Shown piece by piece: positions 30,338 to 51,421 of a stretch of 64,000 nt of DNA; position 1 is the first letter of the stretch, and each line of letters opens with the position of its first letter. Both the position numbers and the translations under genes were made by a program. The notes beneath the pieces were generated by a model, which was not told the origin of the DNA, searched no databases, and saw only the letters and a list, made by a program, of their open reading frames with translations. This stretch comes from a phage: assembly GCA_014435945.1 (NCBI GenBank), contig GCA_014435945.1_4088.1; one strand, written 5' to 3'.

Positions 30338-30364
30338 GGGTTGACTTCTGTCAGCCCTTTTTTT
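30338..30364 (+). terminator. intrinsic terminator (cassette variant without -10)
   Basis: GGGTTGAC-TTCT-GTCAGCCC followed by TTTTTTT. Confidence 0.7.
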
Positions 30365-30898
30365 ATGGGACAAATTTATTAATGGTGATACAATGATCTA
30401 TGTACAATCACAATGACAGTACTGGTACTGACAATCTTCCCCTACTTCACTTGAAAATGTAAAGGATAGATGAGCTTTTCATTGTAGCGAACAGCAAAAG
30501 AAACCCGTTAGATGTGGGCATAGTTTGAACCCCTCACGGCAATGCGGCTGTATAAAGAACCACGTTAGGATAGCTGGTGGTTCCTCGATAGACATATAAG
30601 GATAACACCTTACGAATTATCTAAGGGAGAGTTATCGAATTTTGTACAGGAAAGTTGCGTCCAAAATTTGAGTACTCACATTAAGTATTTGATTGCATAG
30701 ATACTTAATGAAGATACACTATGTTTAAAAGTGTAGACCGTCATATGAAACTGAAGTAGAGAGAAACAGGATGACCCGCTTTCGCACTCATTATGAGTAA
30801 TCTTCAATGCAATAGCTCTGATACCATCAGCGTCAAATTCCCCTCCATGTGGGGGGAAGAAAAATCCCTTCCTCAAATCCCGTCAATATTAAAAGTCC

Positions 30899-30927
30899 TT
30901 GACAGTTATGATTCATTCGCGTAGAAT
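30899..30927 (+). promoter_or_regulatory. sigma70-like promoter
   Basis: TTGACA, 17 bp, TAGAAT. Confidence 0.5.
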
Positions 30928-30991
30928 ACGTAGTATTAGAAGCGAACAGACATCTCGAAGAGATGGATGATTAACCACTAAGGAATATCTA

Positions 30992-31201
30992 ATGAATTCA
31001 GTAATCTTTTTAATTATTGCTCTTTCACCACAATCTGGTGTACAAATCACCCCAATGAATTCAATGAATCAATGCATTGCAGTACGTGACAGTACGTATG
31101 AACAAGTAAACAGCGTTTCACTTAGAACAGTTGGTGAAGAATTAATGTGGTGTTACAATAGCAATACTAAAGAGAAACTAATTGTTGGACAAACTAAATG
31201 A
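30992..31201 (+). CDS. small secreted/membrane protein
   Basis: 69 aa; hydrophobic N-terminus. Confidence 0.45.
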   Translation: MNSVIFLIIALSPQSGVQITPMNSMNQCIAVRDSTYEQVNSVSLRTVGEELMWCYNSNTKEKLIVGQTK

Positions 31202-31425
31202 GTTATGGTGTTCGTTTTGAGATTCGTTCTATTGTTATCAATGATGAGAAACAAGCATCGTTGGATGGCGATATACGAGAACTATATCTATCATGTATCC
31301 GTGCAAAATCTGAAGCAGATGCATTATCACAAATGATTGGTTTTAATTTCTTTCATGGATACTATTTGGTACGAGTTATCGAAGTTAAAAAAGTCACTTT
31401 TGAGTGTCTTGCAGGAGAAATATAA
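31198..31425 (+). CDS. hypothetical protein
   Basis: 75 aa; ATGA overlap. Confidence 0.45.
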   Translation: MSYGVRFEIRSIVINDEKQASLDGDIRELYLSCIRAKSEADALSQMIGFNFFHGYYLVRVIEVKKVTFECLAGEI

Positions 31426-31426
31426 A

Positions 31427-32221
31427 ATGAGCACTATAGATGAATTGATTCGCCGGAATTCAAAATACTACGACCCATCAGAAATTGTTGGCAACATTAC
31501 TAAATCTGAGTTCGGCCCAAATACTCGAAAACTCATTCATGTAATGTCACGTGATGGCTTTAAATGTGATTGTTGTGGTGAATCCAATGTGGTATTCACT
31601 TTACATAAACACAGTACTAAAGACCGTTATAAATTCAGACCTTATGTACTTAAAGGGAAACGCCTTGTACGCATGACGTTAGACCATAATGTACTGGACT
31701 GTCTTCAGGGCGGTAATGATAAAGAGAACATGACTGCACTGTGTGAAGATTGTAACGCATTACGCCAGCATAAGTTCGCTGAGTACAGTGAGTTTAAACA
31801 CTGGTATCATAACGCTGATCGTTCTATCGAGCCTGACGTTAACTACTGCTTTATTGAGTATATTAAGAATGCTAAAGATACATACATTCTTAAATCAATG
31901 TCACCTATTACAGTGTTCCCTGAGAATCTATTCAGTACTATGCAGCGTGATTTTAAACGTGGTATCATGAATGCATTCAAACACTTAGACAAAGGTATCA
32001 AGCACTTTGAGGTGCAATGCTTAAATGAAGGAATGAATCGTTTAGTACAAATTTACATGAAATCATTTATAGGTGTTGACACCGCACGTCTACCAGTATA
32101 TAATTACTTCATTGAAAGCGAAGAAGGTGAATCACTTCGTGATTATGGTGAAAGATTTAATAATAAAGTTTTCACTGCAATCGCAAACGAGATTCATTAC
32201 TATAAACCGTATGTAATTTAA
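31427..32221 (+). CDS. HNH endonuclease domain protein
   Basis: CDCCGES...LDHNVLDCLQGGNDKENMTALCEDCNALRQH (zinc-knuckle HNH motif); ATG 31427 after AGGAG. Confidence 0.7.
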   Translation: MSTIDELIRRNSKYYDPSEIVGNITKSEFGPNTRKLIHVMSRDGFKCDCCGESNVVFTLHKHSTKDRYKFRPYVLKGKRLVRMTLDHNVLDCLQGGNDKENMTALCEDCNALRQHKFAEYSEFKHWYHNADRSIEPDVNYCFIEYIKNAKDTYILKSMSPITVFPENLFSTMQRDFKRGIMNAFKHLDKGIKHFEVQCLNEGMNRLVQIYMKSFIGVDTARLPVYNYFIESEEGESLRDYGERFNNKVFTAIANEIHYYKPYVI

Positions 32222-32235
32222 TTAGAGGATATATC

Positions 32236-32418
32236 ATGCAAATCATCATTCTTATCGTAGGTATCATTCTTGGTGTATATGGTCACTCCTGGATGAACGA
32301 GAAGTTTCCTAATACCCGTCCTGAGTATTGCAGTACTAATGTATTCCAGAATAGTGATAAACCAAAGGATAGTATTGGTAAGAAACTGGACAAAGTACTT
32401 GACGTAATCAACGAATAA
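32236..32418 (+). CDS. small membrane protein
   Basis: 60 aa; N-terminal TM helix. Confidence 0.45.
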   Translation: MQIIILIVGIILGVYGHSWMNEKFPNTRPEYCSTNVFQNSDKPKDSIGKKLDKVLDVINE

Positions 32419-32427
32419 GGGTAAAGT

Positions 32428-32628
32428 ATGTTTAAATCAAATTCGAATGTTGGTAAGAAGGTTCAATTACTTGAGGATGTATCCACCTTGAGTGGAATTT
32501 TCCCAAGAGGTCACATCATGACTATTATTGCCGAAACATCCCGTGGGTGGGATTTAGAAGATGCTGACGGTAATCGCATCCTTGAGGCTGGATTCTATGG
32601 TCATCGTGAATATAAAATCATTGATTAA
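32428..32628 (+). CDS. hypothetical protein
   Basis: 66 aa. Confidence 0.45.
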   Translation: MFKSNSNVGKKVQLLEDVSTLSGIFPRGHIMTIIAETSRGWDLEDADGNRILEAGFYGHREYKIID

Positions 32629-32724
32629 GGATGTAACATGACTTTAGAGATTATCTTTGGTATTGTTAGCTTAGTCATCTGTGTGGGTTGGTTTGGGTAT
32701 CTGATGATTTTTGGTGATTAATAC

Positions 32725-32752
32725 TTGACATAAGATATCAGTACTGTATAAT
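32725..32752 (+). promoter_or_regulatory. promoter, CAGTACTG-spacer class
   Basis: TTGACA-TAAGATATCAGTACTG-TATAAT. Confidence 0.6.
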
Positions 32753-32764
32753 GTTTATATCAAA

Positions 32765-32816
32765 GGGAATGCAGTGAAAGGAAAGACAGCATAATCGTAC
32801 TCGTCACTGCGTTCCC
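32765..32816 (+). promoter_or_regulatory. 5' leader stem-loop
   Basis: About 12-bp stem GGAATGCAGTGA/TCACTGCGTTCC enclosing a 26-nt loop, just downstream of promoter. Confidence 0.45.
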
Positions 32817-32845
32817 GCCCTTTTAAATTAAATGAGGAATTAACT

Positions 32846-33154
32846 ATGTTTCAAACTAACACTCAAGGTTTTGTAATCATCGATTTGAACCAAAACAGCG
32901 GTTATTGGATGAAACCTACTGACGCATGTATGCAGTTTGATTTTTTAGGTTACAGGATTAGTGTAAGTACTGGTGCTTCTGTACTGAGAGGTGGTTGTAT
33001 CGTTGAACATCTGGTAACTGATCCAGAAGGTCGTGAGTATGAAATCGCAGGTTCAGTACAAGATGCCATTATGTTTGTATGTCAGCGTGAAATGAATGGT
33101 TCGAATTCAAATGCACTGACTCATGCTCTTTCTCAAGAAGTGGAGGTTCGTTAA
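32846..33154 (+). CDS. hypothetical protein
   Basis: 102 aa. Confidence 0.5.
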   Translation: MFQTNTQGFVIIDLNQNSGYWMKPTDACMQFDFLGYRISVSTGASVLRGGCIVEHLVTDPEGREYEIAGSVQDAIMFVCQREMNGSNSNALTHALSQEVEVR

Positions 33155-33399
33155 TGAAATATATCGTAGCAGTACTCGTAGCATTTTTACTCACTGCATG
33201 TGATGCTTCAACCAAAGAACGCACAAGTGATTTTATTCTCCCGACTGAATTAAAAGAAGCCGGATGTAAGATTTATCGTATGCAAAAGGACGGTGCTGAC
33301 GTAACCTTGTATACAGTTTATTGTCCTAATGCAAATACAAGTACTGGATACACTAGCGGTAAAACACGAATCAACACTTCCGTAATTCATGGAGAATAA
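33154..33399 (+). CDS. putative lipoprotein
   Basis: Signal peptide with lipobox LLTAC. Confidence 0.55.
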   Translation: MKYIVAVLVAFLLTACDASTKERTSDFILPTELKEAGCKIYRMQKDGADVTLYTVYCPNANTSTGYTSGKTRINTSVIHGE

Positions 33400-33401
33400 C
33401 A

Positions 33402-33770
33402 ATGAGCCTTGATACAACACGTGTAGCAGGTGATTTAACTCGTCTGAATAATGAAGAATTTCTTGCTGAAATAAAGTACAAGCTTGAAAAACTGGCACGA
33501 AGTGCTGAAGTAATTGAAGTTGAAGGTCACTTACCAATGGACCAATTCCATACGTTCAACGAAGATATGGTTTATTATCCAAATGAAATTTGGATTGAGT
33601 GGGAGTCATGGACTAACAATGTTCTCCGAATCGAAGGGTATTGTGTGAATTATGAATCTGAACCTGGTGATGTTACAAAAACTCTCTCAATTTGGTGTAC
33701 AAAAACACATGAACTAGTTGAGGTGAATTTGAATTATATGAAGGGCTTCCGTTGGGGTGATGTTCAATGA
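33402..33770 (+). CDS. hypothetical protein
   Basis: 122 aa. Confidence 0.5.
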   Translation: MSLDTTRVAGDLTRLNNEEFLAEIKYKLEKLARSAEVIEVEGHLPMDQFHTFNEDMVYYPNEIWIEWESWTNNVLRIEGYCVNYESEPGDVTKTLSIWCTKTHELVEVNLNYMKGFRWGDVQ

Positions 33771-34042
33771 TTAAAAAACTATTGACTGTGGTCTTTGTAT
33801 TCTGTACAATGTTTCTTACAGCATGTAATGATGACGGCAGGTTTAGTGCAAAAGACTTAGTTCGTCAGGATTGTACATTCACAGGTAAGTCTTTTATTAA
33901 CGAGTATGAAATATGTACACAATCAGGTCGTATCTGTGGTGGTTGGGAAAAACGTCAGGAGCGATTGTATGTATATGAATGCCCTGGACATCTCAACAAA
34001 GTACTAAGCACACACAAACTTGTTTATGATAAGGTTGAATAA
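33767..34042 (+). CDS. putative lipoprotein
   Basis: Signal peptide with lipobox FLTAC. Confidence 0.55.
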   Translation: MIKKLLTVVFVFCTMFLTACNDDGRFSAKDLVRQDCTFTGKSFINEYEICTQSGRICGGWEKRQERLYVYECPGHLNKVLSTHKLVYDKVE

Positions 34043-34257
34043 TGACTACCAATGAAATGATGCAGGTTATTTGGGATAAAGGTTGTGATATTAAAATCAC
34101 TAGTACTGATGTTCGTGTATTCAAAACTGAATACATGGAGTACTTGGACCTTGATACTTATAATAATATTGTATCAATTGAACACAAAGGTGCAGTACTG
34201 GAAACAATTGACGTAGTACTGAAGAAAGCTACCGACCTATTAGGAGTGGCAGTGTGA
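34042..34257 (+). CDS. hypothetical protein
   Basis: 71 aa. Confidence 0.45.
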   Translation: MTTNEMMQVIWDKGCDIKITSTDVRVFKTEYMEYLDLDTYNNIVSIEHKGAVLETIDVVLKKATDLLGVAV

Positions 34258-34400
34258 ATAACAAAGAGTGGGAAGATTACCGCAAGAAGTGCAGGGAGTT
34301 TGATAAAGAACTTACTGGTGCAGTGAATGCGGTAATGTGGGTATCTTCAATTATTGCAGTACTTGGTTTGGGTTCTATTATTATTAATAAATTTTTATAG
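34254..34400 (+). CDS. small membrane protein (48 aa)
   Basis: GTG start after AGGAG; C-terminal TM helix; below track cutoff. Confidence 0.3.
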   Translation: MNNKEWEDYRKKCREFDKELTGAVNAVMWVSSIIAVLGLGSIIINKFL

Positions 34401-34408
34401 GAATTCCC

Positions 34409-34609
34409 ATGCTTACTTTATATCTCGCAGTAGTTCTCACCAATGGTGAGATCACTCGTACTATTGGTGAAGGTGTATATAAAACACCTGACCAGTGCTA
34501 CTCTGCTACTCATTGGCCTCGCGATAGTGGGGATGAAACTCGCACTGAATTCAAATGCATGAAAGTAAAAGGTGATTTTGTTAACCTTAAGGTTATCGAG
34601 GCGAAATAA
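34409..34609 (+). CDS. small secreted protein
   Basis: 66 aa; hydrophobic N-terminus. Confidence 0.45.
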   Translation: MLTLYLAVVLTNGEITRTIGEGVYKTPDQCYSATHWPRDSGDETRTEFKCMKVKGDFVNLKVIEAK

Positions 34610-35124
34610 TGGATATTAATGAGTTGTTGATCTTATTGTTTAATCGTGGAAATGATGTAAGACGTTCTGAATATCAAGACAAAATTCACATTGAAACTGA
34701 TAAATGTTATGGTAAAACAACTCATGAGATTTTGAAGCCAAATGGCAAACGATATGCCGATGTATGTTTTCATGAACGAAGTGATGGTAGTGAAATAATC
34801 AGTACTGAAATTGTGTTTTATGATAGATCCTCGGCAGGTTCGTATGAAATAGAACTTATATATTGTCCTGGTTCAGAAACACACAATAAACGTCAGATAT
34901 TATATGATGTTTATTCACCACCAGGTGTAGCTGAATATTTTGTTATTGATTACAGTACTGAAGAAAGTGTGTTTCAACAGAGCTTGATTCATAACTTCCA
35001 GTTGAATGACCCAAATGTACCAAAGTTGTTCAAACTACTCGATACTATCGATGTTGATTTTGAATTTGTTATGTGCATTAGAACTTCCTTGATCGATGAA
35101 TTTATGGAACTACTTAATATATGA
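34609..35124 (+). CDS. hypothetical protein, FQxS-module family
   Basis: EESVFQQSLIHNFQLND. Confidence 0.55.
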   Translation: MDINELLILLFNRGNDVRRSEYQDKIHIETDKCYGKTTHEILKPNGKRYADVCFHERSDGSEIISTEIVFYDRSSAGSYEIELIYCPGSETHNKRQILYDVYSPPGVAEYFVIDYSTEESVFQQSLIHNFQLNDPNVPKLFKLLDTIDVDFEFVMCIRTSLIDEFMELLNI

Positions 35125-35342
35125 ATCGTTACTACATTGTTTATGAGCATGTGTCTGAGTTTAATAATGTACGTGGCTATAAGAAAGAAGTACAGAAGAT
35201 TGATGTATTTGTTCGTGCATTAAGTCCAACACATGCACTATTTAAATTGTTTGATGAAGTAACTAAGTACAACACACCAAAAACACAACGCTATGTTGAA
35301 ACAGTACATAGTGTAATACTCACAGAATATGATGGAGAATGA
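35121..35342 (+). CDS. hypothetical protein
   Basis: 73 aa. Confidence 0.45.
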   Translation: MNRYYIVYEHVSEFNNVRGYKKEVQKIDVFVRALSPTHALFKLFDEVTKYNTPKTQRYVETVHSVILTEYDGE

Positions 35343-35345
35343 CAA

Positions 35346-35564
35346 ATGAATTTATATCTAGTTGAAGGGTCAGTACAAGTATCCAAGCAAGACGGAGACG
35401 GGTATCGTTTTTCACATGTGGAAAATTTTAAGTACGTAGTAAAGGCCGATGGTCAGTACGACGCAGAAATTCAGGTTGAAGAATCATTCCGTAAGAAGAA
35501 TGATATTGGTAAATTCGAATACCAGAACTTACAATTCACTGTATGGCCTAGCATTAATGACTAA
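35346..35564 (+). CDS. hypothetical protein
   Basis: 72 aa. Confidence 0.45.
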   Translation: MNLYLVEGSVQVSKQDGDGYRFSHVENFKYVVKADGQYDAEIQVEESFRKKNDIGKFEYQNLQFTVWPSIND

Positions 35565-35565
35565 A

Positions 35566-35769
35566 ATGTGGTGGTGTCATGGTGTCTACAATGTCTATGA
35601 ATATGGTAGATTCAAAATGAGCAGCACCTATGCCAGACGTGTTAATGCGAAAAACCAAGTTGATGCTGCTTGTGAGATTGTAGAGTGGTATGCAGAGTTC
35701 AATGCAATTGATTTTATGTACGAAATAGTTACAATAAATGTTGTACAAATTGACACGTCTTTGATATAA
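35566..35769 (+). CDS. hypothetical protein
   Basis: ATG right after upstream stop (internal start of track ORF 35449). Confidence 0.4.
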   Translation: MWWCHGVYNVYEYGRFKMSSTYARRVNAKNQVDAACEIVEWYAEFNAIDFMYEIVTINVVQIDTSLI

Positions 35770-35803
35770 TAACTGTATCAAAACAACCGCAACTGAGGAT
35801 ACT

Positions 35804-36466: not shown

Positions 36467-36699
36467 TATTGAGTTTTGTAGTCGCATTATTGTTTATGTT
36501 CTACCCTACACTAGTAGCAGTAGCCACTAAACGAAAGCTGGTGGATATCACTACGGTATTCTTGCTAAACGTGGCACTCGTTCTAGTGTCTATTATCATT
36601 CCCGTGAACTTTACGGTTATTGACATGGCATCTGTATTACTATTCGTCTTCAGTTATCTTATGCTTATTGAAGAAAAACCTGTTGACAAACGTTTGTAG
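36457..36699 (+). CDS. small membrane protein
   Basis: 80 aa; two TM helices. Confidence 0.5.
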   Translation: MYLVLSFVVALLFMFYPTLVAVATKRKLVDITTVFLLNVALVLVSIIIPVNFTVIDMASVLLFVFSYLMLIEEKPVDKRL

Positions 36700-36710
36700 T
36701 ACTGTATAAT
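36683..36710 (+). promoter_or_regulatory. promoter, GTACTG-TATAAT class
   Basis: TTGACA-AACGTTTGTAGTACTG-TATAAT, overlapping end of upstream gene. Confidence 0.5.
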
Positions 36711-36757
36711 GGTTCTTGTAGTCTGAAACTTAACACTTAAACTTGAGGATATAAAAC

Positions 36758-37922: not shown

Positions 37923-38269
37923 AAGTAATTTTGTTTTTTGTTTGTATGATTATATGTGGTATGTCTTATGCAGAACCATTACCTGGACTAGTCTGTACTG
38001 AAGGTGATATTAAACACATTTACCAAGGTGATAGCGATGACCATACTATCGTTTATATCGACGGTGAAGTGTATAATTTTGTTAAAGAACATACCGTAGG
38101 TGACATTAGTTTTACGCAGTACTCGAACGATACTGATCCCAATATGCTTGCATTTCTTCAAGTTGATGTATATGAAGATAGTAATGGCGAACAGTATGTT
38201 AAACTTGTGATGATGCGTAAGGCAGCAAAACAGGCAACATTCGGTGGCTTGTGTAAATATGAGGACTAA
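37919..38269 (+). CDS. secreted small protein with Cys pair
   Basis: Signal peptide ...SYAEP; VCTEG...GGLCKYED. Confidence 0.5.
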   Translation: MKVILFFVCMIICGMSYAEPLPGLVCTEGDIKHIYQGDSDDHTIVYIDGEVYNFVKEHTVGDISFTQYSNDTDPNMLAFLQVDVYEDSNGEQYVKLVMMRKAAKQATFGGLCKYED

Positions 38270-38273
38270 ACAT

Positions 38274-38465
38274 ATGTTGATTTATCAATGTGATAACATT
38301 CGTGTTATGCAGCATCCCTACTTACAAATCTTTGATGTGCAGCAGTATATGGAAGGTGATGACCCAAGAACCTATGGTCGTAAGTATGATTACTTCACTG
38401 TAAAGCAGTGTCGTAACATCAAAGAAGTACGACAATTAGTTCAAGAACTTCAAAATAAAGGTTGA
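38274..38465 (+). CDS. hypothetical protein
   Basis: ATG after GAGGA RBS; stop codon inside downstream TTGACT. Confidence 0.45.
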   Translation: MLIYQCDNIRVMQHPYLQIFDVQQYMEGDDPRTYGRKYDYFTVKQCRNIKEVRQLVQELQNKG

Positions 38466-38491
38466 CTTCGGTCAGCCTTTTTTGTTATAAT
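38457..38491 (+). promoter_or_regulatory. terminator-promoter cassette
   Basis: AAAGGTTGAC-TTCG-GTCAGCCTTT hairpin with T-run; TTGACT ... TATAAT. Confidence 0.65.
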
Positions 38492-38520
38492 TATTTCATC
38501 AAATACTGGGGATTTTAATT

Positions 38521-41550: not shown

Positions 41551-41661
41551 TTTGACTTTGGGACAACCATTTCTTACGTGATATAATCTTAAGTGTCTGT
41601 AGAAATAAACAGCACATGAAGTATAAATATTAAAGTAATTTATCTCTTTAAGGAGTATGAA

Positions 41662-42045: not shown

Positions 42046-42051
42046 TTAAAA

Positions 42052-42085
42052 GGGGTTGACTTCAGTCAGCCCTTTGTCGTATAAT
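42052..42085 (+). promoter_or_regulatory. terminator-promoter cassette
   Basis: GGGGTTGAC-TTCA-GTCAGCCC, T-run, TATAAT. Confidence 0.65.
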
Positions 42086-42132
42086 ATTTTCATCAAGTGA
42101 TACAAAATACAAACAACGTGAGGTATTAAATT

Positions 42133-42811: not shown

Positions 42812-42832
42812 TGGTATAGTACAGTGAAAATA

Positions 42833-42871
42833 GGGTTGACTTCGGTCAACCTTTTCTTTATACTATAAATA
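42833..42871 (+). promoter_or_regulatory. terminator-promoter cassette
   Basis: GGGTTGAC-TTCG-GTCAACC, T-run, TATACT followed by TATAAATA. Confidence 0.65.
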
Positions 42872-42892: not shown

Positions 42893-44404
42893 ATGAAATC
42901 TATGGAGAGAAATCAAATGCCAGGTCAATTTACTGATAAAAATGGCGGGAACATGGCAGGTCACTCTGATAAATGGAGTGAACGCAATCGTCGTCAAAAT
43001 AGCTACCAAGCAGGACAGGGGTCACGTGGATCACGTAATCAAGGGACAGGTTTAGCTGGTAAGGCAAACGCAGAAGCAGGTGAAGTTAAGAGTACTGAGA
43101 ACATGACTGAGCTAGAAAAGCTACGTTATGTTAACTCATTAGGTCTTCTTAACGCAACACAGAAACAACGCCTTGCTGATATGGAACGTGCTGAGAAAGA
43201 ACAAGCAGTTCCTAAAGAAGAACCAAAACCAGAAGCTCCTAAAGCAGCTAACCCTGTTAAAGAGTTATCTGATAACTTAGGTAAGATCTTTGCTAACAAA
43301 CCACAGTTGATTCAGGGTATTGTCAAAGCACTACAGGCAGTTCCTAAAGAAGAACTCAAAGGTAAAGCACAAGCTGTACTTGATGCAATGAAAGGTAATA
43401 AGAGCACTGAACCCACTGAAGTATTCAGTACTATCATGCGTGCACTTGAAGGTACACACAAAGAAGATTCGAAAGAACCTGAACAGGGTGAAGCAAGTCT
43501 TGATGGTATTCTTAAAACTTTTGATAGTATTGGTAAAGCAGACCGTGCTAATGCCCAGCAAATCAAGAATGTACTGGCTAAACTTGAAAACCGTTTAGAA
43601 GGTAAAGACGATAAGGTTAAGCTCGTATCAGATGCAGTTAACAGTGCACTTAAATCTTATGTACAAGGTGAGAAAAGTCGCTTCGTAACAGCTATGGATG
43701 CTGCATTCAACACTATGAAAAAGTATGAAGCAGAACATGGTGAGAAGGTAACACCAGATGGTTATCTAAAGCGTGCAGATGAAGAAGGTGCAGTTGAACA
43801 GAAAGATGTAGAACCTGAACAAGAAGATCTACCTGATACCGTTGATATGGATGGATATATTCATCGTCCTGAGATGGAAGAGTTTGGGTCAGATAAAGAA
43901 GGTTTTGAACATGCAATGGCAGTATATAAAGCATTAGTTAAAAATCCAGATTATGCTAACCGTTTTGTTGACGAGTTTGATAGTGCATGGAATAACTACA
44001 AAGACAAAGGTTATGACTTCCCTGCTGAAGCTGCATTCTTTGAACTTGGTAAACTATTAGCTAAACATGGAATTGACGTTGGTTCATCTGATTCCGAAGG
44101 TATGGAAGAAGAACATCTTGAAATGACCGATAAATCAATTCATGAACTTCAAAAGCTAATGATGTGGATATCCGAGATTGGTAAAAAAGCAGGTGCTGAT
44201 AGTAAAAGTATCAACAAAAACATTAGTTGGATTAAAGATAATGTTGGTAACAATGCTCGTAAACTACAAAAGGCGTGGGCTGATTTAGTAAATGGTGCAG
44301 ATGATGTTGACATTGAATCACCAGAAGCATATGAGTATGCACTAACTACACTTGATAACTCATTCAAAGAGTACGACCGTGGTGTTGGAAAAGATAAAAA
44401 ATAA
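42893..44404 (+). CDS. large acidic/lysine-rich protein with internal repeats
   Basis: 503 aa; AVPKEE repeated; SLGLL motif; highly charged and low-complexity. Confidence 0.6.
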   Translation: MKSMERNQMPGQFTDKNGGNMAGHSDKWSERNRRQNSYQAGQGSRGSRNQGTGLAGKANAEAGEVKSTENMTELEKLRYVNSLGLLNATQKQRLADMERAEKEQAVPKEEPKPEAPKAANPVKELSDNLGKIFANKPQLIQGIVKALQAVPKEELKGKAQAVLDAMKGNKSTEPTEVFSTIMRALEGTHKEDSKEPEQGEASLDGILKTFDSIGKADRANAQQIKNVLAKLENRLEGKDDKVKLVSDAVNSALKSYVQGEKSRFVTAMDAAFNTMKKYEAEHGEKVTPDGYLKRADEEGAVEQKDVEPEQEDLPDTVDMDGYIHRPEMEEFGSDKEGFEHAMAVYKALVKNPDYANRFVDEFDSAWNNYKDKGYDFPAEAAFFELGKLLAKHGIDVGSSDSEGMEEEHLEMTDKSIHELQKLMMWISEIGKKAGADSKSINKNISWIKDNVGNNARKLQKAWADLVNGADDVDIESPEAYEYALTTLDNSFKEYDRGVGKDKK

Positions 44405-44410
44405 ACATTT

Positions 44411-44446
44411 AAAAGGTTGACTTCGGTCAACCTTTTTTTGTAAATA
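44411..44446 (+). promoter_or_regulatory. terminator-promoter cassette (weak -10)
   Basis: AAAAGGTTGAC-TTCG-GTCAACCTTTT perfect hairpin, T-run, TAAATA. Confidence 0.6.
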
Positions 44447-45055: not shown

Positions 45056-45062
45056 AAGAAAA

Positions 45063-45095
45063 GGGTTGACTTCGGTCGGCCCTTTTTGCTATAAT
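45063..45095 (+). promoter_or_regulatory. terminator-promoter cassette
   Basis: GGGTTGAC-TTCG-GTCGGCCC, TTTTT, GC, TATAAT. Confidence 0.7.
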
Positions 45096-45121
45096 CATTT
45101 CATCAACTACTGGAGGCAAAC

Positions 45122-45535: not shown

Positions 45536-45546
45536 GGAACAACATC

Positions 45547-45822: not shown

Positions 45823-45831
45823 GGGGTAAAA

Positions 45832-46170: not shown

Positions 46171-46179
46171 GGATTGATA

Positions 46180-46521
46180 ATGATTTTTTACACTAATGCG
46201 TTTGCTTATGCCGTTGCATCAATCTACATTGTGTACTTCTTATTTGGTGGAGTACTGTACTTCTTTAAGTACAAAACATTGTTTAACCGAATGTATCCAA
46301 ATCATCCAATTGTAGTAGTACTTTTGATTATTTCTGTTGCTCACATCATTGTAGAAACAATAATGGGTATTAGTGCAGTACATTACAGTCTAGGTACTAT
46401 TGTGATTATTACTATGATCATCGCATACATTTTAGTAATGGGTTCTGGTTTATTTGGGAATGTAGCAATGAAATTGTATAATCGAATTAAAACCTTACGT
46501 GATAATCTACCGGAGCGTTGA
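46180..46521 (+). CDS. small membrane protein, array A member 2
   Basis: ATG 46180 after AAGGA (track used TTG 46174); same architecture. Confidence 0.55.
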   Translation: MIFYTNAFAYAVASIYIVYFLFGGVLYFFKYKTLFNRMYPNHPIVVVLLIISVAHIIVETIMGISAVHYSLGTIVIITMIIAYILVMGSGLFGNVAMKLYNRIKTLRDNLPER

Positions 46522-46522
46522 G

Positions 46523-46867
46523 ATGTATAATTTAAATTTAATATCATATATCATAACAACACTGTTTACTTTCTATGCCTTTGTTGGTATACTCCTACTG
46601 TACTTTAAATTTTATAAACTCTTTGACCGTTTTTATCCGTCATTAGAACATGAATTCTTATTGGTGATGTACATCTGTCTAACGTTTATGTCTACATTTT
46701 TCACTGCATCTGATGGTATCATTGGTATTAAAGCTGAAGAACCAAATGGGAGTACGCTTGTTGCCTTTATTCTGGTAGGATTTTTCAGTACTTATATTAC
46801 CTTTATTTCAGGATGTACCGTGATTGATTATCTTGTGAAATTACGAGATAAAATGCCAAATCGATAG
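46523..46867 (+). CDS. small membrane protein, array A member 3
   Basis: ATG 46523 after GGAG (track used GTG 46499); same architecture. Confidence 0.55.
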   Translation: MYNLNLISYIITTLFTFYAFVGILLLYFKFYKLFDRFYPSLEHEFLLVMYICLTFMSTFFTASDGIIGIKAEEPNGSTLVAFILVGFFSTYITFISGCTVIDYLVKLRDKMPNR

Positions 46868-46876
46868 GGGATTGCT

Positions 46877-47134
46877 ATGTTTGCATTGCGTAATAAAAAT
46901 ACAAAAGAGATTCTATGTATCTCAACAGTATGGGATTGTGCAGGAAGTGAAATGATTCTCGAAGAAGGTTCAGGTGATTGTGTTTATGTTGTTCAGGATC
47001 GTCGCGAACTGGAATCATTACTTGACGAATTTAATGCTGGTGGAAATCCTAAAAGTACTCAATTCCCTGAGATCAGGAATCCAGCACCACCAGGCTCTTA
47101 TGAAATTCTACAACTGTGGGAGATGGATAAGTAA
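46877..47134 (+). CDS. hypothetical protein
   Basis: 85 aa. Confidence 0.5.
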   Translation: MFALRNKNTKEILCISTVWDCAGSEMILEEGSGDCVYVVQDRRELESLLDEFNAGGNPKSTQFPEIRNPAPPGSYEILQLWEMDK

Positions 47135-47514
47135 TGCGTCAAATGCACAAAGTAACCGAGCTAAACAAGCGTCTGATTAAACAATCAATGTTTGAGGATA
47201 AAGAGTCTTACTATAACTTCAAACGTGCTGTAGAGGCTGCTATCCACATTCAGAAGCTTAAAGAACGTGGTTGTATTATTCTCGAAAATGGTTCTGACGT
47301 TGTGACGAATGACTTCAGTGTAGCGTTTGATGTTTCACCTGATGGTTCGCTATCAATGCCACGCTTAGGGACTGGTAACATGACTGTGTGGGTAGGTTTC
47401 ACTATGGGAAATGTACCAGGTACTGTGTATGTAGATGATGCTGAGTTGAAAGAAAGCTTCAAAAACTTATCGTATCTTGAACCACAACACGCACATGAAA
47501 TGAATTTATTTTGA
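47134..47514 (+). CDS. hypothetical protein
   Basis: 126 aa; TAATG overlap. Confidence 0.5.
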   Translation: MRQMHKVTELNKRLIKQSMFEDKESYYNFKRAVEAAIHIQKLKERGCIILENGSDVVTNDFSVAFDVSPDGSLSMPRLGTGNMTVWVGFTMGNVPGTVYVDDAELKESFKNLSYLEPQHAHEMNLF

Positions 47515-47515
47515 G

Positions 47516-47543
47516 TTGACAAACTCATTCAGTACTGTATAAT
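47516..47543 (+). promoter_or_regulatory. promoter, CAGTACTG-spacer class
   Basis: TTGACA-AACTCATTCAGTACTG-TATAAT. Confidence 0.6.
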
Positions 47544-47552
47544 GTTTATCAA

Positions 47553-47573
47553 GGGGATGAACTTCTCATCCCC
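47553..47573 (+). promoter_or_regulatory. 5' leader hairpin
   Basis: GGGGATGA-ACTTC-TCATCCCC downstream of -10. Confidence 0.45.
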
Positions 47574-47590
47574 ACAATCGAGGAATTGTC

Positions 47591-48145
47591 ATGATTACTT
47601 TTAAGAAAACTGCTAACCACATCCATGAGATCTACATTAACGGTCACAAAGCTGGCCTTCTTCGTTTACTCGCCCATCATCCGAATATTACCGTATCTGA
47701 TAATGAACCTAAAGATTGGCGTGTATTTTTCTTTGGAAAGTACAGTGATTTTCAAGTATCAAACCTGAAGAACATTCGTTCAGTATGCACGTTAACTGAA
47801 ATTAAAGAAAAGTTAACCAAAGCATTGAAAACTAATCCAGATAGTGTTCTTCCACCTGATAACTTTGTAGAGAAAGGATATGCCTTAGCTCATTTCAAAG
47901 ATGGTACTATTCAATCTATCAGTACTGAATATGAATATCAATGGACTGAGTACTTCACTTATGGATCGCGTAATACATTGATGGCTTCACGTAGTAAATT
48001 GGAAGAAGTACTGACTCGTATGAATGAACGCGAGCGTCAATTATATGACAAACCAGAAATGTGGAGTTCAACTTACATTGACCGTATTGACTATGTTATT
48101 ATGACTCCAATCTTTGACACTGCTTACTATGATTCTTTGAAATAA
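47591..48145 (+). CDS. hypothetical protein
   Basis: 184 aa; GAGGAA RBS. Confidence 0.55.
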   Translation: MITFKKTANHIHEIYINGHKAGLLRLLAHHPNITVSDNEPKDWRVFFFGKYSDFQVSNLKNIRSVCTLTEIKEKLTKALKTNPDSVLPPDNFVEKGYALAHFKDGTIQSISTEYEYQWTEYFTYGSRNTLMASRSKLEEVLTRMNERERQLYDKPEMWSSTYIDRIDYVIMTPIFDTAYYDSLK

Positions 48146-48156
48146 GGATAACTTAT

Positions 48157-48333
48157 ATGAAACTACGTACTCGTAATCGACTGATGGATGCACTGTACCA
48201 TGAACAGCTTTCACTGAATGAAGTGAAGCGACAGTTAATGTACACATATCTGTTACCCGCTCGCATTGCAAAACAACGTGCTAAAGAATTGCTGAAAGAA
48301 GCAATCGAGTACTGGGAATCTGATTCGTACTAA
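48157..48333 (+). CDS. small hypothetical protein (58 aa)
   Basis: Below track cutoff; TAAGGA RBS. Confidence 0.35.
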   Translation: MKLRTRNRLMDALYHEQLSLNEVKRQLMYTYLLPARIAKQRAKELLKEAIEYWESDSY

Positions 48334-48361
48334 TTGTCACGTTAATTAAATGAGGCGATAA

Positions 48362-48613
48362 ATGAAAATTTTATTAGTTCTAATACTACTAATTGTTTTA
48401 CCATTTACGTTAGTATCCCCTGAACTTGCATGGAATGTGTTTGTGTACTTACTATGTACTATTGTAGTAAATGGTATCTTGTTCTTAGTTCTATTCATAA
48501 ATGGAATAGGACACGGTGGAGGATGGACCAGTACTGCTGATATTGTACATAAAACCACTATGTCTTTATTTGTAGTGTGGAATTTATTCTGGACTTGGTT
48601 TGTGTTCTTCTAA
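48362..48613 (+). CDS. small membrane protein
   Basis: 83 aa; hydrophobic. Confidence 0.5.
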   Translation: MKILLVLILLIVLPFTLVSPELAWNVFVYLLCTIVVNGILFLVLFINGIGHGGGWTSTADIVHKTTMSLFVVWNLFWTWFVFF

Positions 48614-48622
48614 TTAAAAAAT

Positions 48623-48994
48623 ATGAATATAGATTTGAAAGGTGCAACACGAACTGTCATACTCATTGGGGAATATGCTATCAAGATTCCAACCTTTAAA
48701 AGTTGGAAGCTATTCTTAACAGGGATGATAGCTAACCTCAATGAACGTTCGTGGATGCAGTACTCCAAGCGTAGTGATACTGGTATCTGTCCTACTTTGT
48801 GGTCATCATGTACTGGACTAGTAACTGTACAGAAACGTTGTAAGCCAGTACAACATAGGGGTTTATTTTGGGTGGAGTTGTGTGCTTTAGCATTGAATTC
48901 AGAGTTAAGTACTGACTTCTTCTATTCAGATGCGAAGCCAGAAAACTTTGGGTATCTGTGTGGTAAGTTGGTTAAACTTGATTATGGAGATTAA
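48623..48994 (+). CDS. hypothetical Cys/Trp-rich protein
   Basis: 123 aa. Confidence 0.5.
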   Translation: MNIDLKGATRTVILIGEYAIKIPTFKSWKLFLTGMIANLNERSWMQYSKRSDTGICPTLWSSCTGLVTVQKRCKPVQHRGLFWVELCALALNSELSTDFFYSDAKPENFGYLCGKLVKLDYGD

Positions 48995-48995
48995 T

Positions 48996-49265
48996 ATGTA
49001 CGCATTGTATAATAAAGAAAAGAAACGATTTGCTAAGGTTGAAATTTCGATTGATACATTTGACATGTTGGAGTACTGTATTGTAACGGATTTATATGCT
49101 AACTTGTATTACGTTCTTGATGACGTATCAGTACTGCAACGATTGCTTGAGAATTCCAAAAGCCAATGCCAGGGCATCTATGATGGTTCATCTTATGAAA
49201 CACCTGAGTGTTCCTACGGCTATCTGGACGGGTATGAGATTGTGAAGTTGGGGATTGTTGAATAA
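48996..49265 (+). CDS. hypothetical protein
   Basis: ATG 48996 two nt after upstream stop, GGAG RBS (track start 48930 overlaps). Confidence 0.5.
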   Translation: MYALYNKEKKRFAKVEISIDTFDMLEYCIVTDLYANLYYVLDDVSVLQRLLENSKSQCQGIYDGSSYETPECSYGYLDGYEIVKLGIVE

Positions 49266-49358
49266 ATGGATTAAACAATGAAGAAGTGTATCATTCTTTG
49301 TTCTAATCACCATCGCATGGTACATTCTGGTAGACTATGTTTGATTGAAAGAAAAAAA

Positions 49359-49391
49359 GGGTTGACTTCAGTCGGCCCTTTTTGCTATAAT
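49359..49391 (+). promoter_or_regulatory. terminator-promoter cassette
   Basis: GGGTTGAC-TTCA-GTCGGCCC, TTTTT, GC, TATAAT. Confidence 0.7.
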
Positions 49392-49419
49392 CATTTCATC
49401 GAAACGAGAGGATGAATAC

Positions 49420-49935
49420 ATGACACGCATTAACTTAGTACACGTTAAAGAACTTGCTGACCAACATCTGATGGCTGAATATCGTGAACTCCCACGTGTG
49501 TTTGGTGCTGTACAAAAACATGTTCAAGCACGTAAGCGAGTCCGTGATTTCAAAATTAACAGTACTTACCTGTTAGGTTCAGGTCATGTAACATTCTTCT
49601 ACAACAAGTTATTGTACTTACAGAAGCGTCATATTGATATTGTTAACGAATGTTTGCGTCGTGGTATGAAGATTCAAAACACTGAAGTAAACGACATTAG
49701 CGGATTCCCTGCTGAGTTTTGTAATGACTACGTACCATCGGAGTCAGAGATTAAAATGTCTCGTGAGCGTTTGATTGAGAAGCTACAGATGAAGCCTACG
49801 TGGTATAAATTTACTGACGTTGAACGCCCACAGTATGTTAAAGATATGCAGGACGTAAGTAGTAATATAGAATCTAGTACTGATATGTTCGACGAAATTG
49901 AAGAACAAATCAAAGATGAAATGAATAATTATTAA
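49420..49935 (+). CDS. denV: pyrimidine-dimer DNA glycosylase (T4 endonuclease V homolog)
   Basis: N-terminus [31 protein letters not shown] and [15 protein letters not shown] closely match the T4 DenV sequence as I recall it. Confidence 0.85.
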
Positions 49936-49941
49936 AGGAAA

Positions 49942-49974
49942 GGGTTGACTTCGGTCAGCCCTTTTTGCTATAAT
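49942..49974 (+). promoter_or_regulatory. terminator-promoter cassette
   Basis: GGGTTGAC-TTCG-GTCAGCCC, TTTTT, GC, TATAAT. Confidence 0.7.
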
Positions 49975-50000
49975 TATTTTATCGAAACGAGAGGTAATAC

Positions 50001-50213
50001 ATGAAACTATCTTTTATACGTTTAGCAGAATTCTTCGGTACTGATATTATTACTTTACAACAAATTGCAGACAATACTTCATTAAGTACACAAGAAGTAC
50101 TTGACTTAGATGTAATTCAGTGCGATAATACTTCCATTGATTTCAAAGAAGGTCTTGTCGAAAAAGATAAGATTCAAGCTAAGATTAATGGTGCTGGACG
50201 GGTTCAGTACTGA
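50001..50213 (+). CDS. hypothetical protein
   Basis: 70 aa; GAGAGG RBS. Confidence 0.5.
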   Translation: MKLSFIRLAEFFGTDIITLQQIADNTSLSTQEVLDLDVIQCDNTSIDFKEGLVEKDKIQAKINGAGRVQY

Positions 50214-50229
50214 AAAGGAGTATTGAGTA

Positions 50230-51378
50230 ATGTTTGAAAAGTACTATTTAAATGAAGATGGTGAGAAAGTTTATATTATTGAAGAATTATGTACTAAATT
50301 TGAGTACATGAAAATAGAAAATGTTCCTGTAAAAAATAAAAAAACTATCGTTAGAATTGATGAAATTAAACTAAAAGCCATTGAAAAAGAAGATACTATT
50401 TTTGGCTTACAGATATCAAACAGTAATCAATTTTTTGGACTAGAAAAGAATAAAGTTCTGTTTAGATGTGGAACATGCAGCACTTTATGTACAAGTTCAC
50501 TGAAAAGTTATCTTATCTCTGGTGGATGTCAGATATGTGGTAAGAAGAAAAGAAAAGAGTACCAAAACACTATCAAAATATCTGAATCTGATGCATTAAA
50601 AGAAATACAAAAAGAGTGTAAACGCGAATCTATTACATTTATCAAATTTGAAGGTGAATTTACTACAAAATTCAAATCTAAATTTTGGTACAAATGTAAA
50701 AACAACCATACTCGTTTATGTGAGAACATTTATGATTTTCTTAATGGTCATAATTGTGTTGAATGTCGTGATTACAGCTCGGCAAAAAAGATTCGTTTGA
50801 ATATTCTAGTAGTCAAATATGAAATAGATAAAAGAAACGCAGTTTGTAATAATACCTTTATTGGATTTGTGGGAGGTGTTTATGAAACATCAAAAACAAA
50901 ATTACATTTACAGTGTAATGATTGTAATAACCCATTTTATCCATCATATCATAACTATATATCATCTGAGTCTTCATGTCCTACCTGTTCATCAGGTGAG
51001 AGTAAGAATTTAGTTGATATTGATGGTATGTTAGAAGATGATACCATAAAAGAGAAACGCTTCATTGATTGTAAGTTCAAAAAGCCATTACCTTTTGATC
51101 GATTTATTGAAAGTAAACGAATCCTTCTGGAATATGATGGAGTACAACATTTTCAATCAATCAAATTATGGGGCGGCAAAAGTGCTTTTGAACAAAGAAA
51201 GATAAAAGACGCAATAAAAACTGAGTACGCCATCAACAACGGTTACAACTTCATTAGGATTGCATACTATGAAGACCACGTTGCAGTACTGAAATCTTTT
51301 CTAAAACTTATCGAAGATAATCCAGAAAAGCAAATCGTACAGATTTATGGTGAAGTACAAATCTTAGACAAGAAATAA
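50230..51378 (+). CDS. zinc-ribbon-rich protein with C-terminal endonuclease-like region (possible homing-endonuclease-like)
   Basis: Several CxxC pairs; C-terminal LEYDGVQHF...RKIKD...GYNFIRIAY resembles Vsr/PD-(D/E)xK-type nuclease core (low certainty). Confidence 0.5.
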   Translation: MFEKYYLNEDGEKVYIIEELCTKFEYMKIENVPVKNKKTIVRIDEIKLKAIEKEDTIFGLQISNSNQFFGLEKNKVLFRCGTCSTLCTSSLKSYLISGGCQICGKKKRKEYQNTIKISESDALKEIQKECKRESITFIKFEGEFTTKFKSKFWYKCKNNHTRLCENIYDFLNGHNCVECRDYSSAKKIRLNILVVKYEIDKRNAVCNNTFIGFVGGVYETSKTKLHLQCNDCNNPFYPSYHNYISSESSCPTCSSGESKNLVDIDGMLEDDTIKEKRFIDCKFKKPLPFDRFIESKRILLEYDGVQHFQSIKLWGGKSAFEQRKIKDAIKTEYAINNGYNFIRIAYYEDHVAVLKSFLKLIEDNPEKQIVQIYGEVQILDKK

Positions 51379-51388
51379 CAATACAAAA

Positions 51389-51421
51389 GGGTTGACTTCG
51401 GTCAGCCCTTTTTGCTATAAT
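51389..51421 (+). promoter_or_regulatory. terminator-promoter cassette
   Basis: GGGTTGAC-TTCG-GTCAGCCC, TTTTT, GC, TATAAT. Confidence 0.7.

Follow-up and report, generated by a model that had tools for sequence, protein, structure and literature searches.

The window analysed here is a stretch of 64,000 nucleotides of phage DNA (NCBI GenBank assembly GCA_014435945.1, contig GCA_014435945.1_4088.1), and between 30.3 and 51.4 kb it holds nine copies of a short repeated cassette, (A)n-GGGTTGAC-TTCG-GTCAGCCC-(T)n, all on the + strand and in the same orientation as the genes. We consider it likely that these cassettes are composite terminator/promoter elements of the type called promoter-early stem-loops (PeSLs), located in a hyperplastic early region of an Asteriusvirus-like jumbo coliphage. 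Judged from their letters, six copies have the full design, in which a predicted intrinsic terminator is fused to a predicted sigma-70 promoter; the copy at 30338 appears to be terminator-only, the copy at 44414 has a decayed -10, and the copy at 42833 combines the hairpin with a T4-type late-promoter motif. The PeSL class itself is already known; what is new here is the host group, the uniformity of the stems, and the late-promoter variant.

The nine cassettes and their predicted signals

Both strands of the window were searched with the pattern GGGTTGACTTCGGTCAGCCC, allowing up to 3 mismatches. Matches were found at 30338, 38459, 42053, 42833, 44414, 45063, 49359, 49942, and 51389, and none of 100 dinucleotide-preserving shuffles gave any match. 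Scanning the window without filters with a covariance model built on 56 nt of the cassette recovered the same nine copies at 48.9 to 75.1 bits and revealed no further diverged copies at E values up to 10, the only other hits being reverse-strand shadows of the nine. The recurrent element described in a previous sequence-only reading of this DNA is thus real, and its coordinates differ from ours by only 0 to 3 nt because that reading included the A-run or an extra G. Peptide- or codon-driven repetition was ruled out as the origin of the repeats, since the copies are intergenic. Alignment of the nine copies and their flanks defined a conserved block of about 45 to 50 nt made of an A-tract, the 5′ arm GGGTTGAC, a loop of four nucleotides (six times TTCG, twice TTCA, and once TTCT), the 3′ arm GTC(A/G)(A/G)CC(C/T), and a T-run, which six of the nine copies continue with (T)G(C/T)-TATAAT-nATTT(C/T)ATC.

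By megablast, the window matches the Asteriusvirus jumbo coliphages 121Q, PBECO4/slurp01, BF17, WPEC3, and fEgEco12 (350 to 385 kb) with 89 to 98% identity over only 55 to 74% of its length, a coverage that implies many indels. The taxonomy lines of the closest records (121Q, slurp01, BF17) place the genus Asteriusvirus directly under Caudoviricetes, with no family.

All nine hairpins fold at -12.7 to -18.4 kcal/mol, with z scores of -4.2 to -5.5 relative to shuffles. The core stem is 8 bp long with one or two G.U pairs, and flanking A-U pairs lengthen it to 10 to 13 bp, which corrects the 8 to 10 bp given previously. Directly after the core stem come 4 to 7 U in eight copies and UUUGUCG in copy 42053. 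The copies thus combine the features expected of an intrinsic terminator, i.e., a G/C-rich stem, a 4-nt loop, a 3′ U-run, a position after a stop codon, and co-orientation with the genes. The hairpin starts 6 to 21 nt past the upstream stop codon in seven of the nine copies; copy 38459 has the stop within its stem, and 113 nt, including an endonuclease remnant, separate copy 49359 from the stop upstream. Downstream, the distance from the hairpin end to the next start codon is 39 to 42 nt in seven of the eight copies that have a close open reading frame (ORF), the exception being copy 42053 with 60 nt. The stem is preceded by an A-tract and the downstream start codons by GAGG-like motifs.

In six copies (38459, 42053, 45063, 49359, 49942, and 51389), the 5′ arm contains a -35 hexamer, TTGACT, followed by an 18-bp spacer and TATAAT. 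These copies score 11/12 in a sigma-70 consensus scan, and five of them also carry the TG of an extended -10. In copy 2 (38455..38498), with stem arms AGGTTGAC/GTCAGCCT, TTGACT spans 38462-38467 and is followed by TGT-TATAAT, with TATAAT at 38486-38491 and a predicted start near 38498. The upstream gene had been said to stop inside this -35, and it does: ORF 38244-38465 ends with TGA at 38463-38465, and its annotated orthologues in WPEC3 and 121Q end alike. Copy 3 (42049..42092) has a TTCA loop, the weak U-run TTTGTCG, TATAAT at 42080-42085, and no TG. The 3′ arm of copy 6 (45059..45102) is GTCGGCCC, with two U.G wobbles, and TGC-TATAAT follows (TATAAT 45090-45095). Copy 7 (49355..49398) is upstream of denV and has the remnant of an HNH endonuclease gene immediately 5′; copy 8 (49938..49981) stands between denV and ORFs 50001-50213 and 50230-51378. 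Copy 9 (51385..51428), upstream of the ATPase gene 51450-52220, comprises an A-tract (51385-51388), the 5′ arm GGGTTGAC (51389-51396), the loop TTCG (51397-51400), the 3′ arm GTCAGCCC (51401-51408), TTTTTGC (51409-51415), and TATAAT (51416-51421), giving TGC-TATAAT, a predicted start at A51428, and the ATG at 51450. Its TTGACT (51392-51397) agrees with the -35 consensus at five of six positions, and T51413-G51414 makes the extended -10 (TGn).

The remaining three copies depart from this design, so that an almost invariant 33-bp element ending in TATAAT, as first described, holds for six copies and fails for 42833 (TATACT at 17 bp) and 44414 (TAAATA). Copy 1 (30334..30364), AAAG-GGGTTGAC-TTCT-GTCAGCCC-TTTTTTT, begins 7 nt past the stop of the phage sigma-factor gene and folds at -17.8 kcal/mol (z -5.2). 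There is no -10 there, in agreement with its earlier description as a promoter-less variant, and no ORF lies close downstream. Copy 5 (44410..44446) has a perfectly palindromic stem, AGGTTGAC/GTCAACCT, that folds equally well on either strand, followed by a degenerate -10 (TTTTTTTG-TAAATA). In copy 4 (42829..42871), the stem GGGTTGAC/GTCAACCT is followed by a TATACT at 17 bp that overlaps TATAAATA at 42864-42871. This T4-type late-promoter motif is depleted in the window, with 2 occurrences in 64 kb (41622-41629 and 42864-42871) versus 10.9 expected, and both lie 30 to 40 nt upstream of two ORFs whose homologues in relatives are annotated as virion structural proteins, inside the early region; the ORF that follows copy 42833 is the 503-aa 42893-44404. 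By motif and gene context, copy 42833 is therefore a predicted T4-type late promoter, and it probably ends early transcription and supplies a late start.

These features suggest how a full cassette would work. RNA copied from upstream would form an 8-bp G/C-rich hairpin, GGGUUGAC-UUCG-GUCAGCCC, with a cUUCGg-type loop and an A-U extension, followed by 3 to 7 U, and would terminate intrinsically, so that in seven copies the upstream transcript would end 6 to 21 nt past its stop codon. As DNA, the same bases would be a strong host sigma-70 promoter: the 5′ arm would give the -35 TTGACT, the loop, 3′ arm, and U-run would fill the 17- to 18-bp spacer, and the last T of the U-run plus a G would form the extended -10 (TGn) ahead of TATAAT. 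Transcription is predicted to start at an A 7 nt past TATAAT, with a leader of about 20 nt containing a Shine-Dalgarno sequence, and the A-tract may double as an UP-like element. Early timing and use of the host sigma factor are likewise predicted. Lastly, the identity of the ~45-bp repeats would mark, and probably supply, recombination sites for swaps of gene modules between related phages.

The mechanism put forward by the sequence-only reading, a terminator fused to a sigma-70 promoter with the -35 in the 5′ arm, thus appears essentially right for six of the nine copies, and the comparative evidence given below (pairing, -10 spacing, PeSL match) supports it. That each copy restarts transcription does not hold, since only these six have a canonical promoter. 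Insulation of single genes was overstated as well: the intervals after successive cassettes hold 23, 9, 3, 1, 2, 12, 1, 2, and at least 7 ORFs, i.e., from 1 to 23, and a unit consists of a single gene just twice, with the virion-protein gene (42893-44404) and with denV. The ATPase gene, thought to lie between two cassettes, has one before it and none after it. Two points go beyond that reading, namely, that the element belongs to a known class and that it appears to mark recombination/homology breakpoints.

Conservation of the hairpin and of promoter geometry

A family alignment was assembled from five Asteriusvirus relatives, 39 IMG/VR loci found with a degenerate pattern, KVP40, and seven bacterial-labelled contigs; aligning these to the covariance model gave 150 hits, corresponding to 116 distinct copies. 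Across these copies, stem pairing is 98.8% standard, with 148 wobble cells versus 14 unpaired ones among 1159. The 5′ arm is invariant, and variation is confined to the 3′ arm and is wobble-preserving throughout: at pair 14/31, 104 copies have U.G and 10 have U-A; at pair 15/30, 108 have U-A and 8 have U.G; and at pair 16/29, 110 have G-C and 6 have G.U. Covariation is seen at the basal pair (89 copies with G-C, 17 with A-U, 8 with G.U, 1 with U-A). Neither the covariation score nor the percentage of paired positions was matched in any of 500 shuffles, and sliding the 3′ partner lowered pairing to between 16 and 59%. Where wobbles are present, the antisense strand folds less stably (-13.6 versus -17.6 kcal/mol; in copy 45063, -10.1 versus -18.0 kcal/mol), because sense-strand wobbles become C.A mismatches there. 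This pattern argues for selection on a helix in the sense-strand RNA and against a symmetric protein-binding site in DNA.

The promoter columns are equally constrained. TTGAC is invariant in the 116 copies, although a terminator stem needs no such sequence, and the -10 columns read T97/A95/T96/(A63,T33)/A74/T93, with T105-G75 two columns upstream. An A lies exactly 7 nt after the -10 hexamer in 92 of the 116 copies, preceded by C or T. When a -10 was defined as a match at 4 or more of 6 positions with A2 and T6 required, one was present in 103 of 121 distinct copies. Spacers of 18 bp (70 copies) and 17 bp (33 copies) account for all of them, with none of 16 or 19 bp; 85 of these 103 copies also carry TG, and the other 18 of the 121 are terminator-only. 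Both CCC+TTTTT+GC and CCCC+TTTT+GC are found and both yield an 18-bp spacer, the lengths of stem and U-run trading off because the hairpin and U-run must fit into the promoter spacer. Such a pattern is what a sigma-70/sigma-A promoter would need and is hard to explain otherwise. A chance likeness to promoters was ruled out by the fixed 17/18 spacing and the +1 A over more than 100 copies.

Individual cassettes have also stayed with their genes over long distances. The 20-nt hairpin of the ATPase cassette is identical in a 366-kb jumbo-phage contig (L040) whose ATPase protein is 58.6% identical, and in other jumbo contigs, at protein identities of 65% and 63%, the hairpins of the denV and kinase cassettes, respectively, differ by no more than a change that is wobble-neutral or in the loop. 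The -10 and spacer drift across the Rak2-like clade, from TATAAT/18 to TATTAT/17. Conservation of these cassette-gene pairs across Rak2-like genera points to long-term purifying selection.

A second class of near-consensus promoters without a hairpin was also noted, TTGAC(A/T)-N8-(C/T)AGTACTG-(N)TATAAT, with an over-represented palindrome in its spacer. Consensus matches lie at 15229-15257, 15641-15669, 16400-16428, 32725-32752, 36683-36710, and 47516-47543, and the one at 32725 is situated at a homology breakpoint common to four relatives (32746-32773).

Kinship with promoter-early stem-loops and homology breakpoints

PeSLs are composites of a sigma-70 promoter and a stem-loop terminator, first reported from RB49/phi1 and subsequently from PST/T4 and nt-1/KVP40; they are intergenic and repeated, are concentrated in hyperplastic regions, and have been implicated in modular shuffling (PMC2839356, PMC4122927). 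The nt-1 consensus is A3-4 G3-loop-C3 T3-4 with TTGYVH-N17-TAWWAT (PMC4122927). In nt-1, the ORF109/110 spacer (Fig. 6B of PMC4122927) reads TCAAAAAGGGTTGACAGATGTCAGCCCTTTTTTGTATCAT... and its PeSL, AAAAAGGGTTGAC-AGAT-GTCAGCCCTTTTTTG-TATCAT, scores 42.2 bits (E about 1e-7) with the model derived from the window. Two more nt-1 spacers are AAAAGGGTTGC-TTCG-GCAGCCCTTTTTTGTTATTCT and AAAAGGGTTGCA-CTA-TGCAGCCCTTTTTAGTATTAT-ATCTACATCGAAACGAGA; with the same model, nt-1 spacers score 38 to 42 bits and a KVP40 copy 60.6 bits.

The resemblance to the nt-1/KVP40 elements (Comeau, Arbiol & Krisch 2014, PMC4122927) extends to the A3-4 G3-TTG... stem-loop-C3 T3-4 arrangement, the placement of the -35 within the 5′ arm, a spacing of about 17 bp to the -10, and a short leader with a Shine-Dalgarno sequence. 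The nt-1 ORF109/110 spacer, AAAAAGGGTTGAC-AGAT-GTCAGCCCTTTTTTGTATCAT, agrees in part of its sequence with the window cassettes, positions 21140-21187 of KVP40 are 81% identical to the cassette over 48 nt, and the nt-1 PeSL with the CTA loop shares the leader CATCGAAACGAGA with copy 49359. In both settings, the elements are intergenic and multi-copy, lie in variable, ORFan-rich regions, and appear to stand beside indels. Unlike nt-1 and KVP40, the window belongs to an Asteriusvirus, a Rak2-like jumbo phage outside the Straboviridae; its stems are far more uniform (TTGAC-TTCG-GTCAG), whereas those of nt-1 are mostly others (TTGC-TTCG-GCAG, TTGCA-CTA-TGCAG), and it has a copy that joins the hairpin to a late-promoter motif, the published variants being early (PeSL) and middle (PmSL).

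The RB49/phi1 PeSLs (Arbiol et al. 2010, PMC2839356) similarly pair a near-consensus sigma-70 promoter with a stem-loop terminator in hyperplastic regions, where they flank ORFans, and they too were proposed to mediate modular shuffling. They are the only member class with experimentally reported promoter and terminator activity: the RB49 stem-loop is reported to have lowered lacZ expression to an extent similar to that of a strong terminator, and a lacZ reporter lacking its own promoter is reported to have confirmed promoter function (PMC2839356). They differ from the window cassettes in having poly-G/poly-C stems and a stem-loop that mostly lies between -35 and -10 or over the -10, overlap with the -35 being just one of five PeSL subclasses. 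Taken together, a promoter and stem-loop in one intergenic element, a stop-to-start layout, many copies in a hyperplastic region, and relatedness to a published PeSL are all found in the window. Residence in a T4-type phage (Straboviridae) is not, and this concerns the host phage rather than the mechanism. The window cassettes can thus be classed, as predicted elements, with the nt-1/KVP40 type of PeSL, although their phage does not belong to the T4-type group.

Other known systems are more distant. In the same clade, the passages of the CBB/GAP32 paper that deal with transcription signals (PMC5259590) predict RpoD-like promoters with UP-like elements for CBB, concentrated in the corresponding region of small hypothetical genes around the sigma-factor gene; as in the window, a sigma-70 consensus lies behind an A-rich UP-like element. 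In those passages, promoters and terminators are listed apart as separate features, with no fused repeat and no link to PeSLs, and a keyword look-up gave 0 occurrences of “stem-loop.” Lambdoid morons, single genes or small sets added to phage genomes with their own promoter and terminator (PMC2839356), are comparable, but in the window one conserved element would do both regulatory jobs. Extensive coupling of the promoters and terminators of adjacent units is stated in a preprint (bioRxiv 10.64898/2026.08.19.745784), which concerns bacterial chromosomes. In the literature searched, no published report of such cassettes in Asteriusvirus or Rak2-like phages was found, and a literal search of 8 million papers with four variants of the cassette core sequence returned nothing relevant. 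The only transcriptomic study of Asteriusvirus or Rak2-like phages that we found was that of PA5oct, in which promoters and terminators are listed separately. Over the cassettes themselves, no known RNA family was detected, Rfam at gathering thresholds giving only tRNAs in the window.

We then compared the window from 28 to 54 kb with five relatives by BLAST, and 22 clusters of homology breakpoints were obtained, of which 5 fall on cassettes. The breakpoint at 42096 is the right edge of copy 42053 (versus 121Q, slurp01, and JP4) and that at 42827 the left edge of copy 42833; breakpoints at 49344-49354 and 51373-51385 lie at the 5′ edges of copies 49359 and 51389, and one at 49931-49955 lies inside copy 49942. 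Five of 22 clusters is an enrichment at p = 7e-4 versus uniform placement, in a small sample that is not phylogenetically independent. The 731 bp between copies 42053 and 42833 are replaced by 135 bp in 121Q, slurp01, and JP4. In four of six orthologous pairs from the window and 121Q, the 37-nt core is 95 to 100% identical and the downstream gene 88 to 96% identical, with non-homologous sequence (55 to 63%) in the upstream 200 nt, so that homology starts at the cassette. In 121Q, the strict copies number seven, and a stretch of ~14 kb in the 348-kb genome holds them all. At 24279-24300 of 121Q (L042), after denV and at the site orthologous to copy 49942, there is a half-cassette in which GGGTTGACTTCGGT is joined to TACACAAAGG (GGGTTGACTTCGGT followed by TACAC...) and beyond which lie two extra genes (218 and 219) that are not in the window; it appears to be a recombination junction inside the hairpin. 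In addition, WPEC3 (L001, 25012-25425) and JP4 (L045, 21455-21868) carry a free-standing HNH endonuclease gene exactly between the upstream stop and the denV cassette, and its TGA stop lies inside the cassette TTGAC. The window retains a remnant of this gene at 49278-49349, about 23 codons, internally deleted with its 5′ and 3′ ends fused, and 121Q is without the insert. This pattern of breakpoints and flanks is suggestive and fits the shuffling picture proposed for PeSLs, with limited statistical weight.

These data raise the question of whether the cassettes are primarily a recombination or mobility module, as in the mini-circle model of PeSLs, with regulation secondary. We find this plausible though somewhat short of an even prospect; it is compatible with the composite terminator/promoter explanation and differs from it in emphasis. 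The five breakpoints on cassettes, the retention of cassette and downstream gene when upstream flanks are replaced, the half-cassette junction of 121Q, the precise placement of the HNH gene in WPEC3 and JP4 with its remnant in the window, and the mini-circles reported for RB49/phi1 (PMC2839356) all favor mobility. However, 17 of the 22 breakpoints are elsewhere, enrichment over other gene junctions is weak, cassette-gene pairs are vertically inherited over deep Rak2-like divergence, and wobble-only changes, fixed -10 spacing, and the +1 A are marks of a transcription signal rather than of a homology patch. A terminator, or an RNA 3′-end stabilizer, would be all there is if the TATAAT and the TTGAC of the stem were coincidental or nonfunctional and the next genes were expressed by read-through or from other promoters. 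Three of the nine copies indeed have no good -10, the GenBank records of GAP32 and Muenster label the site just “terminator,” and hairpin-less consensus promoters lie in the same region at 32076, 32725, 36683, and 47516. Nevertheless, this is very unlikely in view of the invariant TTGAC, which no terminator requires, the -10 (A2/T6) at exactly 17 or 18 bp and its frequent TG, the purine start after a pyrimidine 7 nt downstream, and a start-codon distance fixed at about 40 nt.

The same bases could also be read as an operator in DNA, GTTGAC-N4-GTCAAC, where a dimeric phage or host regulator would cover the -35 and switch early promoters off, the RNA hairpin being incidental. Overlap with the -35 is the classic position for a repressor, a phage must shut off early transcription, and copies 42833 and 44414 are perfect palindromes. 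Yet the arms are asymmetric, since the T opposite G in 104 of 116 copies is a wobble in sense RNA and a C.A mismatch on the other strand, all variation preserves wobble while the basal pair covaries, the loop varies freely with stem pairing kept, and terminator-only copies retain the hairpin and U-run without a -10. Moreover, a common repressor is unlikely for a hairpin that recurs in unrelated phage families and hosts, including the Gram-positive Brochothrix. We rejected the operator palindrome on the strand-asymmetric wobble and the covariation and regard such a site as extremely improbable. Several observations nonetheless weigh against composite terminator/promoter elements that mark breakpoints. 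Compared with any gene junction, the enrichment of breakpoints falls to p = 0.125 (a cassette is at 8 of 65 junctions); no transcript-end or reporter data for any Asteriusvirus were found in the searchable literature; the pair counts come from an alignment fitted to the model, with hits ascertained through the hairpin. Within the signals, the 18-bp spacer exceeds the optimum by 1 bp, the -35 is only 5/6, and the U-run of copy 42053 (UUUGUCG) is weak. The predicted fold also allows pairing between the A-tract and the U-run, and this might make termination less efficient. Hairpin stability alone does not account for the strong bias toward G rather than A opposite the first U of UUGAC (104 to 10); it may reflect common descent or selection against a perfect DNA palindrome or cruciform in the promoter. 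Avoidance of an antisense promoter was also considered as the reason for the conserved G.U wobble, but the geometry would leave a reverse promoter with too short a spacer.

Wider occurrence, genomic setting, and meaning

Querying with a 48-nt cassette returned 662 places in 179 phage records, and 35 records of Escherichia phages were among those with matches. Among the matches listed, Rak2-like jumbo phages have 6 to 10 copies per genome, and KVP40-like phages, Aeromonas T4-likes, Certrevirus, and others have 1 to 4. Copies were verified in Brochothrix A9 (Herelleviridae), Aeromonas 65.2 (Straboviridae), Xanthomonas XbC2 (Mimasvirus), and Cronobacter CR9 (Vequintavirinae), each between a stop codon and the next gene. 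A string of 26 to 30 nt, (A)AGGGTTGACTTCGGTCAGCCCTTTT, is identical in the window phage, Aeromonas 65.2, and Brochothrix A9 (Gram-positive host), U.G wobble included; the XbC2 and CR9 copies are near-identical, with one wobble change and one extra G-C pair, respectively, and part of the leader, CATCGAAAC, is common to the window, Vibrio nt-1, and Cronobacter CR9. Travel of cassettes between families together with their downstream genes was rejected: when 146 downstream ORFs were compared all against all by BLASTP, homologues were confined to the Rak2-like clade or to pairs of near-identical contigs, and none crossed families. If there was transfer, the cassette would thus have moved on its own, the downstream genes not being homologous across families, and horizontal movement of the cassette alone between phage families is possible. 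Alternatively, squeezing a terminator into a promoter spacer of 17 to 18 bp may force a very narrow convergent optimum. That the cassette is a single portable expression unit common to unrelated families of large virulent phages seems unlikely to us, if worth keeping in mind. As a further speculation, RNA polymerase released at the U-run might re-initiate at once on the same cassette.

In 185,579 bacterial and archaeal species genomes, the exact 24-mer GGGTTGACTTCGGTCAGCCCTTTT occurred in 7 contigs only. These bacterial-labelled contigs (L046-L052) comprise three from Vibrio, three Bacteroidetes metagenome-assembled genomes (MAGs), and one Clostridia MAG; in most of them, a long T-run comes after GGGTTGACTTCGGTCAGCCCTTTT and no -10 is present, as in the terminator-only form. 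They may be prophages or mis-binned phage contigs.

The cassettes are set in a block of + strand genes. According to a Pfam scan and the annotation of relatives, the phage sigma-factor gene (29365-30330, Sigma70_r2/r3) directly precedes copy 30338, and a long series of small, mostly hypothetical + strand ORFs lies 3′ of it. The block includes a 503-aa ORF (42893-44404, +) with a homologue annotated as a virion structural protein in relatives, denV (49420-49935, +, Pyr_excise), a called ORF between copy 8 and the zinc-finger gene (50001-50213, +), the gene of a treble-clef zinc-finger protein (50230-51378, +), and the AAA-type ATPase gene (51450-52220, +); from ~54 kb onward, an array of RCC1-like genes occupies the minus strand. 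Downstream of the terminator-only copy 30338, about 600 bp (30365-30990) are without a sizeable + strand ORF and hold a promoter-like TTGACA-17-TAGAAT at 30899, with a C/G-rich inverted repeat (tcccctccatgtgggggga) just upstream of it; this could be a noncoding RNA or a regulatory region. A tRNA cluster is present at 14065-18038, with Arg(tct), Ser(act), Met(cat), Asn(gtt), and three tandem tRNA-Thr(tgt) at 17805-18038.

Other signals are also repeated in the window. The 8-bp palindrome CAGTACTG occurs 37 times versus 1.0 expected (maximum of 4 in 100 shuffles), for example at 1252, 13389, 15243, 32739, 47530, and 51533; the commonest 8-mer, AGTACTGA, occurs 42 times, and AGTACT 178 times versus about 22 expected from base composition. 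Of the CAGTACTG sites, 36 are in the + strand block at 1-54 kb and 29 fall within ORFs of the + strand, where every reading frame is represented, which indicates a DNA- or RNA-level signal rather than a peptide motif. No match to this palindrome was found in the literature searched. Within the minus-strand array of RCC1-like paralogues, a second family of terminator-like hairpins, GCCAGTAC-loop-GTACTGGC followed by TTTTCTTTTT, recurs on the minus strand at 54732-54758, 56623-56641, 57831-57850, 62545-62567, and 63786-63804, and its arms (GCCAGTAC and GTACTGGC) hold the two halves of CAGTACTG.

For annotation, the cassettes provide nine predicted transcript boundaries and six predicted start sites among genes that are mostly of unknown function, in a group whose transcription signals have so far been reported, in the literature we found, from motif and terminator prediction software. 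For synthetic biology, they offer a natural part of ~45 nt that would both insulate and drive expression, with the design rule that the stem and U-run fit within the promoter spacer. Because they are nearly identical in different phage families, they also allow transfer and convergence to be tested against each other. Finally, these results suggest that the PeSL design is not confined to T4-type phages and that it would organize the early, fast-evolving region of the 350- to 380-kb Rak2-like jumbo phages as well.

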